Virus record (IMG/VR): IMGVR_UViG_3300017650_000015
Span: 1-42,789 of that record
Length of the DNA: 42,789 nt
Origin: a virus
Taxonomy: Duplodnaviria; Caudoviricetes
Direction: 5' to 3' (one strand)
Shown here: piece after piece, positions 2,901 through 42,744 of the stretch
How positions within the stretch are numbered: position 1 is the first letter of the stretch
Layout: the number at the start of each line of letters is the position of its first letter
Position numbers and translations under genes: made by a program
The notes under the pieces: generated by a model
What the model was told of the DNA's origin: nothing
The model's input: the letters and a program-made list of their open reading frames with translations, nothing else
Database searches by the model: none

Positions 2901-3131
2901 ATGCCCCCATTATCCACAGGCCATTCGGCCGCACCCGACCCCTTCCGAGCGCTCCGTCTGGAGCAATGTCAGGGGCGGGCGAGGTGCGTGAACTGCGGCC
3001 ATGTGGGGGCGCTGGACCTCTCGGCGCGTGATCCGAAGATGCCCGCCGTGGACCTCGAAAGGGCCTTGCGGTGCAGCTCGTGCGGCGAGAGGGGAACAAG
3101 CCTCCTGCTACGCAAGGAGGGCGGGCTTTGA
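2901..3131 (+). CDS. Zinc-ribbon protein (CxxC..CxxC, 76 aa), candidate SOS-induced antirepressor
   Basis: CVNC and CSSC pairs; the only convincing plus-strand CDS; preceded by a LexA box. Confidence 0.75.
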   Translation: MPPLSTGHSAAPDPFRALRLEQCQGRARCVNCGHVGALDLSARDPKMPAVDLERALRCSSCGERGTSLLLRKEGGL

Positions 3132-3192
3132 CCGCGACCATCGGGCAGTGGGGACTGCCCTAGGTTTCGCCCTAGGAGGGCTCGTCAGGCGG
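3132..3192 (-). ncRNA. Hammerhead ribozyme, type I; predicted cleavage after GUC between 3136 and 3135
   Basis: RNA: CCGC CUGACGA GCCCU-CCU-AGGGC GAAA CC-UA-GGGCAGU-CCCC-ACUGCCC-GAU-GG UC GCGG; full core and three stems. Confidence 0.9.
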
Positions 3193-3193
3193 A

Positions 3194-3370
3194 CTATCGA
3201 AGGCGGGCGAAGCAAGCCGCAGCCTCGCGCTCCATCTCGCGGACCTCGGCGAGGATCTTCTCGACCTCGTCATGGTCGATGTTCGGGTCATCCACGAAGG
3301 GGTCATAGCCGACCAGTTCGAGGAACTGGCGGGCCAGCTCGACGCGGCGTTCGGTGGGTTCAAAGGTCAT
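3194..3370 (-). CDS. Early hypothetical protein (58 aa, MTFEPTERR...)
   Basis: SD GAGGA; fits the early operon. Confidence 0.7.
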   Translation of the reverse strand: MTFEPTERRVELARQFLELVGYDPFVDDPNIDHDEVEKILAEVREMEREAAACFARLR

Positions 3371-3386
3371 TGGATGGTCCTCAGTT

Positions 3387-3698
3387 CTAGCGGATAGGCA
3401 GTGCCCACAGAGCGCCGAGGTGCGCGGCGATCTCATAGGCCCGCTCGCGGTCGCCGGCCGGGCCATCGGTGACGCATTCGAGCCCGAGCTGGGCGCTGTT
3501 GGCGTGGTAGTGGCCATAGACCGACCAGAACTGCGCCTCGGCGTCTGGCACCTGCTCGACGAACTCCCCGCCCTCCCCGTCAGGGAACAGCGCGCAGCCG
3601 TGGACCTCCAGCCAGTCCCAATCGGCCGCGAGGAGGATCGAGGGCTCAAGGCCCTCCTCGCAGCAGTTGAACAGCTCGGCTTCCGTGAACGTGGTCAT
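3387..3698 (-). CDS. Early acidic protein (103 aa, MTTFTEAELF...)
   Basis: SD AAGGA; about 19 D/E versus 3 R/K. Confidence 0.75.
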   Translation of the reverse strand: MTTFTEAELFNCCEEGLEPSILLAADWDWLEVHGCALFPDGEGGEFVEQVPDAEAQFWSVYGHYHANSAQLGLECVTDGPAGDRERAYEIAAHLGALWALPIR

Positions 3699-3862
3699 GG
3701 CGTGTCCTTCACTTCGATGGGCGTCAGGGTCCGCAGCGCGCGGAACGGATGGTCGCGGTAGAAGCGGCAAGCCGCCTCGAATGGGTGTGCGGCTTCGACG
3801 AGGCAGAAGCCCGAGCCCTGCCAGCGGGTGAGCCGGTAGTTGGCGAGGTAGACGACCGTCAT
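3695..3862 (-). CDS. Early hypothetical protein (55 aa, MTVVYLANY...)
   Basis: ATGA-type overlaps at both ends. Confidence 0.6.
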   Translation of the reverse strand: MTVVYLANYRLTRWQGSGFCLVEAAHPFEAACRFYRDHPFRALRTLTPIEVKDTP

Positions 3863-4296
3863 CGGGTCGCCCTCGCGCTCTCCTCGGCGGTCATGTCGCA
3901 AGGGTCGAACACGAGGATGCCGGGCAGGTACTTGGGGCCGCTGGTGTGCCCAAGGAACGCCATCTCGGCCTTCTCGACGGGCATCCGATGGGTGCCCATG
4001 ACGTGGACGAAAGTGCTGTCGAAGTCGGGATTGAACGAGACGGCCTTGCCGAGGCGCTGGCCGGCCCTGAGGTAGGCGGCATCGGCCTGCCCCCAGAGGT
4101 GATATTGCAGCCCCGTCCCGGTCTCGGTATCGACCGCTTCAAGGTCGCCGAGGAGGTACGGGCCGGCCTTCGTGATCACCAGCTTGACGTTGCGCAGCAG
4201 CACGCGCTCGGCGGTGCCGGTGAGCACGCGCTTGGTCCGGTCATCCTTGAGCGTCCAGCGCCGGACGCGGCTGTTCCAGTTGCAGCGAACGCGCAT
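3859..4296 (-). CDS. Early hypothetical protein (145 aa)
   Basis: SD GAGGGAG; coupled to neighbours. Confidence 0.75.
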   Translation of the reverse strand: MRVRCNWNSRVRRWTLKDDRTKRVLTGTAERVLLRNVKLVITKAGPYLLGDLEAVDTETGTGLQYHLWGQADAAYLRAGQRLGKAVSFNPDFDSTFVHVMGTHRMPVEKAEMAFLGHTSGPKYLPGILVFDPCDMTAEESARATR

Positions 4297-4511
4297 CAGA
4301 AGAACTCCCTCAGGTCAAAGCGGGGATTGCGATAGCCGGCGACAAAGTCCGGCTCGGCGCCCTCGAACTGCCATCCGATCTCCCTCGGCATGGCGTAGAG
4401 CTGGTGCGCCACGTCGCCGAGGTGGCGGGCAAACTGGCGCTGGTTGGCGACCTCGAACGGGCCGAAGGTGCGCTGCGAGAGAGGGTCGAAGAAGGTGACG
4501 CGAGGGGCCAT
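4296..4511 (-). CDS. Early hypothetical protein (71 aa, MAPRVTFFDP...)
   Basis: TGATG coupling; SD GGAGG. Confidence 0.7.
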   Translation of the reverse strand: MAPRVTFFDPLSQRTFGPFEVANQRQFARHLGDVAHQLYAMPREIGWQFEGAEPDFVAGYRNPRFDLREFF

Positions 4512-4921
4512 CAGCGGGCGCCCTCCTCGATCAGCAGGACCGAGCGGATGAGCTTGCGGCGTCCCCAAAACGCATGGATCGGCTTCGGCCCGAGCTGGTC
4601 CAGCACGACACCGTCACGGACCATCTGCACATGGCCGGTGGTCCAGACGTAGTAGAGGCGACCGGGCTCGGCGCGGCGCCGCACGAACGACACCAGCGTC
4701 TCGCGGAACAGGAAGTTGATGGGCCGGAAGCGGACGCCGAACCAGCGGAGAGCCGCCAGCCGCTCATTGTGCGTGGTGCGGCCCTTCCAGTTGCCGCGCT
4801 TGCCGGCCGACATGACGCGCCATGCGTCCTCGAACGGGCAACCAGCGGCGACCGCGACCGCAGTCACGCCGCAGTTAGGGCCGGGCCGAGCGCCGGCAGG
4901 CAGGGCGAAACCCTCGCTCAT
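4511..4921 (-). CDS. Early protein with a possible papain-like Cys/His motif (NCGVTAVA...GHV)
   Basis: Cys at the start of a hydrophobic helix with a downstream His; SD GGGAGG; function is a guess. Confidence 0.65.
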   Translation of the reverse strand: MSEGFALPAGARPGPNCGVTAVAVAAGCPFEDAWRVMSAGKRGNWKGRTTHNERLAALRWFGVRFRPINFLFRETLVSFVRRRAEPGRLYYVWTTGHVQMVRDGVVLDQLGPKPIHAFWGRRKLIRSVLLIEEGAR

Positions 4922-5115
4922 CGCGCGCCCTCCCCTGCCACGATCACCACCTTGCAGCGCCAGCCGGCCAGCATACGGGCGATCTTGACCGCCTCTTTGC
5001 GGCCTGCAGCGTCCCGAGTGATCACGATGGGCTTCCCGAGCCAGCCGGGCGCATCGTCGAACGTCGCGATTTGCCAGCGCTTCGGGGCCAGCTTGGAGAC
5101 CTGATAGACGCGCAT
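4918..5115 (-). CDS. Early hypothetical protein (65 aa)
   Basis: SD AAGGGAG; coupled overlaps. Confidence 0.7.
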   Translation of the reverse strand: MRVYQVSKLAPKRWQIATFDDAPGWLGKPIVITRDAAGRKEAVKIARMLAGWRCKVVIVAGEGAR

Positions 5116-5183
5116 CAGCGGGCTCCCTTGCGGGCCGCAGGCGGCAGGTCCAGAGGGTGCGTGTCGTCGAAACCGTCGATCAT
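5115..5183 (-). CDS. Possible 22-aa mini-ORF (MIDGFDDTHPLDLPPAARKGAR) just downstream of the type II hammerhead
   Basis: SD GGGAGAG; TGATG coupling to the next gene. Confidence 0.4.
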   Translation of the reverse strand: MIDGFDDTHPLDLPPAARKGAR

Positions 5184-5210
5184 CGGGGCTCTCCCGTTCG
5201 TGTCGCTGAC

Positions 5211-5275
5211 AGGCTCGTCAGGCGGCGCCTCACGCCGCGACCATCGGGCAGACGGTGCTGCCCTAGGTTTCGCCT
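5211..5275 (-). ncRNA. Hammerhead ribozyme, type II; predicted cleavage after GUC between 5239 and 5238
   Basis: RNA: AGGC GAAA CC-UA-GGGCAG-CACCGU-CUGCCC-GAU-GG UC GCGGCG-UGAGG-CGCCGC CUGACGA GCCU. Confidence 0.92.
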
Positions 5276-5296
5276 TGCATTCTTGGGGTGCATAGA

Positions 5297-6109
5297 TCAG
5301 TCGACGACAAACCCTGAGGTGTCGCGCTTGGCGTTGCCCTTGGCGTAGAGGCCGACCACCACGCCCTTGGGATCGAGGAACCGAAGGTCCGTTTCGTCGC
5401 CGTTGACCACCTCAGCGACGACATAGTCGCCAGCCGCTGCCAGAGCGAAGCCGTTCGCCTCATAGAAGGCGACCGTTGCCTTATCGCGGAACACAACCGC
5501 CACGTTGAGGCCGTTGCGGAAGGCCTTCACAGCCTGTTCACGGTTGCCATCGGCCAGACTGAAAACCACGGTATAGTTGGCCGGCAGACCCTTGCGGTTC
5601 GGCAGCTTGGTATAGTCATAGAACCGGACGTCGCCGAAGTGCTCGAAGAGGTTGGCCGATCCTTCCGGCTTGCTGGACCAAGTGCCAGCCATGGCCGGAA
5701 CCTTGACGGCTTCCCAGCGGATATCTGAGGTGCCGTTGAGGCGGAATACAGGCTCCAAACCGGCCTTGCGAGCCAGCCGAACGGCCGTTTCCATCTCACG
5801 GACCAGAGCGAAAAGGAACGTCTCGCGGCTCTCAAAGAACCATTTCGTCTTGCGGATGCGGGCCGCTTGGATCGTGTTGACCTTGCCAGCCTTGACGTCC
5901 TCAACGGTCAGACGGGCAACGCCCTTCATCATGCCGCCGCGCCCTGCCGTGTTCAGGCAAGCCGCCTCACAGCCGGCAGTCGCCATCGGGCAGACGTTGA
6001 AGCCCGAGAGCTTGGCAGGCGCCAGATGCAGGATGAAGGTCCAGTAGCCAGCGCCCCGCCCCTTCTCAGTCTTGGGATTGCCGGGCGTCAGGATCTTGAA
6101 ACGTGCCAT
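5297..6109 (-). CDS. GP88-like phage protein (Cys-rich, possibly Fe-S / radical-SAM-related)
   Basis: CPMATAGCEAAC cluster and RLNGTSDI and FYDYTK motifs recalled from the GP88 family; SD AGGAG. Confidence 0.75.
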   Translation of the reverse strand: MARFKILTPGNPKTEKGRGAGYWTFILHLAPAKLSGFNVCPMATAGCEAACLNTAGRGGMMKGVARLTVEDVKAGKVNTIQAARIRKTKWFFESRETFLFALVREMETAVRLARKAGLEPVFRLNGTSDIRWEAVKVPAMAGTWSSKPEGSANLFEHFGDVRFYDYTKLPNRKGLPANYTVVFSLADGNREQAVKAFRNGLNVAVVFRDKATVAFYEANGFALAAAGDYVVAEVVNGDETDLRFLDPKGVVVGLYAKGNAKRDTSGFVVD

Positions 6110-6399: not shown

Positions 6400-6570
6400 T
6401 CAGAAGTTCCACGGCTTGGCGCCGCGCACCTTGCAGACCGCCGAGGCTTCCCGCTTACCGGAAACCGTGATCTTCTCGCCAGCCTCGAAGGTCGGGCCGT
6501 TGCAGGGCGCCGCGACCAGCGTCAACGTCCAGACCTTGCCGGACGCCTTGTGCAGATATGCAACCATCAT
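6400..6570 (-). CDS. First early gene (56 aa, MMVAYLHKASGKVW...KPWNF)
   Basis: SD AAGGGAG overlapping hammerhead stem III; absent from the ORF track. Confidence 0.7.
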   Translation of the reverse strand: MMVAYLHKASGKVWTLTLVAAPCNGPTFEAGEKITVSGKREASAVCKVRGAKPWNF

Positions 6571-6575
6571 TCACT

Positions 6576-6631
6576 CCCTTGTTTCGCCCTTACTGGGGCT
6601 CATCAGGCCGGCAACTAGCCGACGACAAGGG
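6576..6631 (-). ncRNA. Hammerhead ribozyme, type III; predicted cleavage after GUC between 6624 and 6623
   Basis: RNA: CCCUUG UC GUCGGC-UAGUU-GCCGGC CUGAUGA GCCC-CAGUAA-GGGC GAAA CAAGGG; canonical core with all stems paired. Confidence 0.95.
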
Positions 6632-6726: not shown

Positions 6727-6756
6727 GTTATAACCCTAGGGTGAATTGTAACGCAA
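6727..6756 (-). promoter_or_regulatory. Major early host sigma70 promoter with a palindromic operator-like site in the spacer
   Basis: TTGCGT-N18-TATAAC, upstream A/T tracts, ACCCTAGGGT palindrome between the hexamers. Confidence 0.8.
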
Positions 6757-7817: not shown

Positions 7818-7838
7818 CTCCACCTATACTCCACTCTC

Positions 7839-32667: not shown

Positions 32668-33033
32668 TCAGGAGTGCCGGTATCGGGTCCGGTAGGCGCG
32701 CTCCTCGGCCTCGCGCTGGCTCTCGCCCGGTAGGCGGAACTCGCGGAGCCACAGCAGGACGCCGAGCGGGGCATCGGTGTGCAGCTCGCCAGTCCTCGTC
32801 CAGCCGTCCGGCGAGTGCCGGAAGTGGACGTAGAAGCGGATGACGTGAGTGTCGAAGCGCCCGAGCTTGGAGCAGTCGGGGTAGGCATCAGGCGCCAGAG
32901 GGAATGGCGGCATGACGCCGACGTTGAAGGACGCCATGGTCTGGCCGTCCTTGTGCCGCAGCGGGCCGGGGATGTGCTTGGGGATGTGCCCGAGAAGCCG
33001 CTCGGGGTTCTTCGCGTCGCGGACTTCGATCAT
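32668..33033 (-). CDS. Hypothetical protein (about 121 aa)
   Basis: ORF between helicase and polymerase; start MIEVRD uncertain. Confidence 0.6.
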   Translation of the reverse strand: MIEVRDAKNPERLLGHIPKHIPGPLRHKDGQTMASFNVGVMPPFPLAPDAYPDCSKLGRFDTHVIRFYVHFRHSPDGWTRTGELHTDAPLGVLLWLREFRLPGESQREAEERAYRTRYRHS

Positions 33034-33041
33034 GGTTTCAT

Positions 33042-33314
33042 TCACGAGCAGTATTCCCGAGTTTGCTTCCAAAGAACTTCGCTTACGCGACCTTGGTTTA
33101 TCTCCAGCTTTGCAGCGATCTGGTGGTTGGCGAGGCGCTCACGGAAGTGGAGATGGAAGATTTTCTCCCGCACTTCCGGCGTCACCTTTCGGCTTACCGT
33201 TGGACTTCTCAGGTGGGACTGGCGCCGCTTCCGGTCCCTCAACTCCGTGATGACGGCAACAGCACCAGTCATTCCCTCGGCGGTGAGAGCCGCCACAGCG
33301 TCGTCAAACTTCAT
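33042..33314 (-). CDS. Small HTH-containing protein (90 aa), locally lower GC
   Basis: ANHQIAAKLEINQGRVSEVL helix-turn-helix pattern. Confidence 0.65.
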   Translation of the reverse strand: MKFDDAVAALTAEGMTGAVAVITELRDRKRRQSHLRSPTVSRKVTPEVREKIFHLHFRERLANHQIAAKLEINQGRVSEVLWKQTREYCS

Positions 33315-39487: not shown

Positions 39488-39503
39488 CCTAGGGTGCATA
39501 GAT
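39488..39503 (-). promoter_or_regulatory. Operator-like motif TCTATGCACCCTAGGG
   Basis: Recurs near 42566, 6126, 5285 and partially at 6735, always intergenic. Confidence 0.6.
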
Positions 39504-42556: not shown

Positions 42557-42590
42557 GGTATATATCCTAGGGTGCATACTATCAAGTCAA
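42557..42590 (-). promoter_or_regulatory. Host sigma70-like promoter overlapped by the operator motif
   Basis: TTGACTTGATAGTATGCACCCTAGGATATATA; exact hexamer register ambiguous. Confidence 0.6.
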
Positions 42591-42666: not shown

Positions 42667-42682
42667 GGAACCTAAATCCAGC
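42667..42682. repeat. Right att core (16 bp)
   Basis: Identical to 108-123. Confidence 0.95.
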
Positions 42683-42708
42683 GTGTCTACCAATTCCACC
42701 ACGCCCGC
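42667..42708 (-). pseudogene. 5' part of the disrupted host tRNA-Leu(TAG)
   Basis: GCGGGCGTGGTGGAATTGGTAGACACGCTGGATTTAGGTTCC, then phage sequence without T arm or acceptor complement; joined to 65-107 it gives a complete 85-nt tRNA. Confidence 0.93.
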
Positions 42709-42744
42709 AGCTGCCGTTTTTATTGGTCCGGCCAAGGCGCCGCC

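Follow-up and report, generated by a model that had tools for sequence, protein, structure and literature searches.

In this report, we describe three hammerhead ribozymes that are encoded in a stretch of viral DNA of 42,789 nucleotides (nt), positions 1 to 42,789 of IMG/VR record IMGVR_UViG_3300017650_000015 (Duplodnaviria; Caudoviricetes), referred to here as the window. The three motifs, one each of types III, II, and I, are found in that order along the minus strand of the early region, and they are genuine hammerhead motifs by sequence, in an arrangement that has been known since 2011. Their sequences, the modeled structures, and the analogy with related clusters indicate that these motifs probably cut the early transcript into linear messenger RNAs (mRNAs) with folded ends. 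An initial annotation of this DNA had proposed that the RNA between the type II and type I motifs is closed into a circular mRNA, and this proposal is weighed below.

Using a strict descriptor that demands the full catalytic core, three stems, and a fold near the minimum free energy (MFE), exactly three hammerheads were identified in the window, all of them on the minus strand. With the same descriptor, no hammerhead was found on the plus strand or in 100 dinucleotide shuffles of both strands, and a search of 136 loci returned 29 sense matches, three of which are from the window's own record, and no antisense matches. The type III motif (6576..6631) has a predicted cut at 6624|6623 and adopts the MFE fold with a z-score of -3.6. 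The type II motif (5211..5275), with a predicted cut at 5239|5238, is composed of a stem I hairpin (5238-5222), the core (5221-5215), and an open stem II (5275-5272 with 5214-5211); its active fold lies 1.3 kcal/mol above the MFE. The type I motif (3132..3192), with a predicted cut at 3136|3135, begins 2 nt past the last stop codon and is again the MFE fold (z-score of -2.5), with an open stem I of four base pairs (bp). The core residues C3 U4 G5 A6 N7 G8 A9, G12 A13 A14 A15, and U16 H17 (consensus as given in PMC3088659) are present in all three motifs, and each motif has three stems with standard pairs beside the core. The best Rfam scores were 21.8 (type III motif against HH9), 18.0, and 13.2 bits, all of them below the gathering cut-offs of 48.5-52.

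Separation of the cleaved products is predicted to be free for the type II and type I motifs, with free-energy changes (ddG) of -0.9 and 0.0 kcal/mol, respectively, at 1 M. The predicted release of the type III products is slow (ddG of -10.8). The 3' strand of stem III in the type III motif (6576-6582) contains the ribosome-binding site of the open reading frame (ORF) at 6570, and release would free this site. Of the 22 other type III motifs, only 3 mask a ribosome-binding site with stem III, and this feature is therefore not taken as conserved.

Transcription would begin at about 6725, and cleavage is expected at all three motifs from their agreement with the consensus and from the tested activity of comparable clusters. 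Two linear mRNAs, 1385 and 2103 nt long, would result, and their ends are predicted to fold into the hairpins left over from the ribozymes. The type II products would be released, after which a short downstream tail would fold over the catalytic core, making the cut hard to reverse and burying the 5'-hydroxyl end. With the type I cut, the 3' end would be set before the transcript reaches a convergent gene. Bacterial ribonucleases (RNases) have preferences for certain 5' ends.

The tail of the type II motif (5206..5211, minus strand) pairs with its own core at 5221-5216, flush with the stem I hairpin, and this pairing is part of the MFE structure of the cut 5' end. The tail occupies one base of stem II, and its pairing and the active fold are mutually exclusive. 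Once the tail has been transcribed, the masked fold is predicted to exceed the active secondary structure in stability by 1.3 to 1.9 kcal/mol. Tails of at least 6 bp were found in 16 of the 101 type II motifs in a first set and in 11 of the 101 in a second set, where 1.4 and 1.2, respectively, were expected from shuffled sequences. In an extended set, the tail was present in 29 of 217 type II motifs, and the carriers include loci L075, L110, L122, L283, L286, L308, and L325 from other phages. The tails were selected without regard to N7, and the base that pairs with N7 was found to covary with it (14 C-G, 10 U-A, 1 U-G, 0 C-A, and 1 G-G; Fisher p = 3e-6). Both types of N7 pair occur among paralogs in L283 and L308. 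The only sign of a tertiary contact or pseudoknot between stems I and II is, in the type II motif, a 3-bp match between loop I and the tail, and loop-tail pairing over 101 type II motifs was approximately at the level found in shuffled sequences. A narrow term search of the literature found no report of a core-masking tail.

The favored reading of the tail is that of a post-cleavage lock. Alternatively, the tail could compete with the active type II fold prior to cleavage, so that the cut at 5239 would depend on conditions such as the presence of ribosomes on the neighboring ORFs. The greater stability of the masked fold and the covariation of the tail with the core are both consistent with such a regulated switch, and stop and start signals of ORFs are found within approximately 25 nt on either side of the motif. 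However, tertiary contacts and Mg2+, which are outside the energy model, favor the active fold, 188 of the 217 type II motifs are without a 6-bp tail, and a role after cleavage accounts equally well for the covariation. We therefore regard a regulated switch as unlikely.

The initial annotation had described the type I and type II motifs as circular permutations of a single element. The sequence identities behind this description were confirmed. On the minus strand, 5274-5258 is identical to 3171-3155 (17 nt), 5251-5235 to 3148-3132 (17 nt), and 5225-5212 to 3192-3179 (14 nt), and these blocks occur in swapped order in the two motifs. The two 17-nt blocks, 34 nt in all, are separated by six variable positions and form a 40-nt block (5235..5274, minus strand) that matches 3171-3132 at 36 of 40 positions and comprises the stem III domain together with GCGG. 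The description does not extend to the loop of stem I and the tail of the type II motif, which are common to the type II motifs of the related loci L075, L110, and L325, whose stems III differ. In L075, the closest relative (62% for the terminase and 58% for GP88), the type II motif is found at the same position after the GP88 gene and has the same loop I and tail, a different stem III, and GCAG instead of GCGG. The type II motif of L110 resembles that of L075. The window's type II motif is thus a member of a type II lineage that already existed. Its stem III domain probably either was replaced by that of the type I motif or served as the source of the latter, with neither direction favored by the sequences.

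Of 100 shuffles, 21 contain a lone 17-nt direct repeat. Hammerheads of unrelated phages match as many as 28 of the 34 nt, and the 14-nt block is found exactly in two other phages (L075 and L322). The bulged stem III of these motifs was found in 80 of the 384 distinct hammerheads collected (51 of type II and 29 of type I), a set that is enriched for this feature because one of the searches targeted it. Among the mixed pairs compared, full identity between a type I and a type II motif within one genome was found only in the window. Recent shared ancestry of the two motifs, or a copied tract, is supported by these comparisons. Their common sequence is best read as a family consensus plus a short tract that was copied between paralogs at the DNA level, and not as a design for ligation.

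The features of the RNA between the type II and type I cuts are as the initial annotation had given them. The piece from 5238 to 3136 is 2103 nt in length, begins with GCGG, ends with GGUC, and contains eight ORFs. All of the parts of a hammerhead are present on it. The expected end groups follow from hammerhead cleavage, which leaves 5'-hydroxyl and 2',3'-cyclic phosphate ends that can be joined by ligases, and ligation by the hammerhead itself is described as having been seen in some cases only (PMC6765202). In a programmed circular mRNA, this piece would be closed by a hammerhead that reforms across the junction, or by the host RtcB, and the tail would block re-cutting. Two routes to the junction were considered. 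Route A is a swap of stem I, in which the 5' GCGG pairs with CCGC of the type I motif as had been proposed, and route B is a swap of stem II, which rebuilds the type II motif. Both routes provide 4 bp on paper.

For either route, local hairpins at the ends would have to open. For the cut 5' end, the predicted structure (-18.1 kcal/mol) combines the 7-bp hairpin of stem I with a second hairpin over the core. The 5' GCGG is locked in the former, which must be opened for route A, and the 3' end retains its own stem II and stem III hairpins. Using secondary-structure models without tertiary contacts, the cost of forcing the junction by routes A and B, respectively, was found to be +6.1 and +7.4 kcal/mol in the whole linear piece, +4.6 and +8.1 kcal/mol when only the ends were folded, and +6.4 and +9.9 kcal/mol locally in the circle. 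The costs of a two-strand junction (+13.4 and +10.0 kcal/mol) are upper bounds, with refolding disallowed. A circle made by an enzyme would resist re-cutting, since the junction fold is costly in the circle. No closing stem was found, the end-to-end duplex being weaker than 83% of internal 60-nt pairs, and the ends of the piece are thus without special complementarity.

The scanned phage ORFs, which covered the early and replication regions, include no identifiable RNA ligase, and no reverse transcriptase or RNA-dependent RNA polymerase was found in the subset of ORFs scanned. In the related phage RHEph21, where an early hammerhead is also present, a gene for an RNA ligase (phrog_548; L007:13906-14523) lies between the primase and the polymerase; the ORF at the matching position of the window (32668-33072) is unrelated to this ligase. 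RtcB was found in 24 of 151 genomes of a candidate host order, which is the order of genome G001, where a prophage has a related terminase. In the comparable prophage clusters tested previously, circles were raised as an option, but spliced or circular products are stated not to have been detected, as "data not shown" (PMC3088659). A search of the literature, limited to titles and the beginnings of abstracts, found no report of circular mRNAs made by phage hammerheads.

The arrangement of hammerheads in other phages was compared using 535 loci, from which an extended scanner that also accepts one extra base after A9 identified 407 distinct motifs and 159 adjacent pairs within 3.5 kb. The window's own record (L067) was excluded, and the counts ignore relatedness among the phages. 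In gathering the loci, three scans with single proteins provided 1, 0, and 0 loci, and an alignment of MarR provided 58 and 70 loci. A hammerhead is present at 11 of the 71 MarR loci that have at least 3 kb of upstream sequence. None was found in L396 or in seven regions from genomes of the candidate host order, two of which have an integrase match. Route A is available with 4 bp in none of the 11 adjacent II-to-I pairs, and with 3 bp in one. Four non-adjacent pairs have the 4-bp match, one in L075 and three in L275. In L122, L325, and L346 the order of the motifs is kept and the swap is broken. Within 18 clusters of T7-like phages, some junction route exists for 23 of 40 adjacent pairs and none for the other 17, and in three of these 17 the parts are incomplete because the type I motif precedes the type II motif.

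The processing of the early transcript into linear mRNAs must be weighed against several observations that do not favor it. Route B is available with at least 3 bp in 9 of the 11 II-to-I pairs, relative to 42% for pairings between loci, although these 11 pairs represent about six lineages, two of which fail. The order III-II-I is found in 13 of 16 mixed clusters, where 4.7 are expected. The open stems, which are the ones exchanged at a junction, are shared preferentially within genomes: stem II is shared in 49 of 81 II-II pairs, where it is open, versus 17 of 50 I-I pairs (p = 0.004), and stem I in 26 of 50 I-I pairs, where it is open, versus 28 of 81 II-II pairs (p = 0.07). When the native folds of the type II and type I motifs are modeled in the same way within their precursor, they too carry a cost, of +3 to +5 kcal/mol, which is close to that of the junction, so the energies do not decide on the junction. 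Finally, arrays composed entirely of type I motifs leave no hairpin at the 5' end, and end-capping is thus not universal.

These observations can be accommodated in more than one way. The order III-II-I is not decisive because the same order provides both the complete parts of a hammerhead and hairpins at both ends of each piece. Like the availability of the stem II swap in 9 of the 11 pairs, it is explained equally well by end-capping and by swapping at the DNA level. A DNA crossover inside two motifs and the closure of an RNA circle would produce identical chimeric junctions, and cassette exchange therefore predicts the same pattern. The sharing of open stems is alike for neighbors and non-neighbors (16/35 versus 18/47, and 39/63 versus 75/137). 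Preferential sharing of open stems in phage hammerheads was not found in the literature search. The III-II-I layout is also found in Rhizobium phage RHEph01 and in locus L291. A minor circular product is possible because the stem II swap is kept in 9 of the 11 pairs, and for a circle, if one forms, the pairing of GCGG is a less plausible origin than a stem II swap or closure by an enzyme. The pairing that had been proposed for GCGG thus exists on paper, but it competes with a 7-bp hairpin at a cost of +4.6 to +6.4 kcal/mol and is without a counterpart in the adjacent pairs of other phages. We consider a programmed circular mRNA to be quite unlikely. The broader possibility, that the order of the three types and the sharing of open stems constitute a circularization code by which each gene block closes through the stem II swap or a host ligase and is locked by the tail, appears equally doubtful.

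It is very unlikely that the motifs function mainly as joints in the DNA, as short repeats for the swapping of early-gene cassettes between phages with cleavage as a tolerated side effect. In favor of such a role, the gene content between motifs varies among close relatives, the homolog of ORF 4296-3859 stays boxed by motifs of differing types, a 40-nt direct repeat is present here, and homology breakpoints between related phages are enriched at hammerheads (31 of 134 versus 13 expected, a count that includes redundant pairs and is biased by conserved motifs that extend the alignments). Against it, all of the motifs retain their catalytic cores and show compensatory changes in the stems, which indicates selection on the RNA, and if the type II and type I motifs of the window recombined, the cassette would be lost and no core would remain.

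Several known systems are comparable. The early polycistronic transcript of phage T7 is cut between genes by RNase III. The early RNA considered here is likewise a polycistronic transcript of a T7-type phage that would be cut between genes, except that the chemistry is independent of protein and the end groups differ. Retrozymes, viroids, and satellite RNAs have ribozymes of the same kind in tandem direct repeats, and cutting by these ribozymes frees monomers that correspond to one unit of the replicon. The ribozyme-cut end groups that ligases can join are common to these RNAs and the window (PMC6765202), whereas the window has different permutations, a repeat of no more than 40 nt plus 14 nt, and a piece that is made up of 2.1 kb of phage genes. 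The closest precedents are the prophage hammerheads flanking genes described by Perreault et al. (2011, PMC3088659), for which processing was proposed and for which cleavage was shown with three clusters, including a triple from Agrobacterium that cleaves in vitro and in E. coli. As in those clusters, the window has several co-oriented intergenic hammerheads that flank short blocks of genes. The Agrobacterium triple is found in a tail/ArdA/MarR/tRNA/integrase context (PMC3088659), and the window similarly has an integrase, a MarR-like gene, a leucine transfer RNA (tRNA-Leu), and attachment (att) cores. The 40-nt block that the type II motif has in common with the type I motif and the core-masking tail set the window apart from the clusters as they are described in that report. 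The type II hammerheads of Desulfovibrio vulgaris, which cleave in vivo, are located near phage-like genes as in the window, and no mixed-type cluster is described for them (PMC8782182).

Among named phages, RHEph01 (JX483873; III-II-I) and vB_RleA_TRX32-1 (MW023914; II-I) have the same order of motifs before MarR and integrase. As in the window, stem III of their last type I motif has the same bulge, and GCGG follows the type II cut. They differ from the window in that stem I of their type I motif rejects GCGG (1 bp) and in that their type II motifs have an extra U after A9 and are without the masking tail. An extra base after A9 was found in 31 hammerhead matches over all loci, 28 of which are beside canonical motifs. 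Examples include L002:2107, L003:3628, L006, L009, L075:4497, L275, and L291, and the variant is common in these T7-like phages. Viroids also have hammerheads in which an extra base follows A9. Arrays of 7-10 hammerheads were found in single phage regions (L283/L316, L329, L339, L178, and L279).

The window is an integrated temperate T7-like phage. The ORF scan identified a tyrosine integrase, a MarR-like regulator, terminase, capsid, a single-subunit RNA polymerase, a primase/helicase, and a DNA polymerase, and identical 16-nt att cores are found at 108 and 42667. The nearest named terminases are those of Rhizobium phages RHEph01, TRX32-1, and RHEph21 (approximately 61%). A host tRNA-Leu(TAG) has apparently been split at the anticodon arm by the integration and was not restored (65-123 and 42667-42725). 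A complete tRNA-Leu(TAG) is carried by the phage at 1337-1421, between MarR and integrase, and TRX32-1 and LUZ100 have a tRNA-Leu at the corresponding place.

The early region extends on the minus strand from approximately 6750 down to 3130. A candidate early promoter for the host polymerase (TTGCGT-18 nt-TATAAC; 6727..6756, minus strand) was recognized by eye and was not called by a consensus promoter scan. It is followed on the same strand by two small ORFs (6570-6400 and 6412-6200) and a gene of the GP88 family (PF17338, phrog_1617; 5297..6109), which ends 22 nt upstream of the type II motif. The eight small ORFs between the type II and type I motifs (5183-5115, 5115-4918, 4921-4511, 4511-4296, 4296-3859, 3862-3695, 3698-3387, and 3370-3194; minus strand) have family matches that are weak or to families of unknown function only. 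On the plus strand, a convergent ORF of 76 residues with two CxxC motifs (2901..3131) has a stop codon that adjoins the type I motif, and its zinc-ribbon matches are weak and below the cut-off.

Four of the stop-start overlaps in the early region, at 5115, 4921, 4511, and 3862, have a similar purine-rich motif, as a result of which three of the small proteins end in GAR. It is possible that these joints provide microhomology for gene swapping. The motif TATGCACC flanks the GP88 gene at 5287 and 6128 and is found again at 39493, after the RNA polymerase gene, and at 42571 and 42655, near att. It is possibly an operator or arm site, with an occurrence that is not clearly above chance. At one mismatch, the motif CTATGCACC is found in 6 of 100 shuffles, which is also not clearly above chance. 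A G-rich repeat of 17-26 nt occurs at 7834, 28690, 36750, 39439, 42208, and 42245, and this element is likely a promoter for the phage polymerase on the minus strand.

If the circles were real, a DNA phage would provide a natural example of a programmed circular mRNA that encodes proteins, and a circularization code would mean that a DNA phage makes viroid-like early messages that are exonuclease-proof. The core-masking tail and the sharing of open stems are of greater interest than the claim of a circle. Because all three permutations, an unusually good compatibility at the junction, and the masking tail are found together, a single construct would test processing, circularization, and locking. 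RHEph01 and TRX32-1 are cultured relatives in which a test in vivo is possible. The locus is thus a clean test case for the purpose of clustered hammerheads in phages, a question that dates from 2011.

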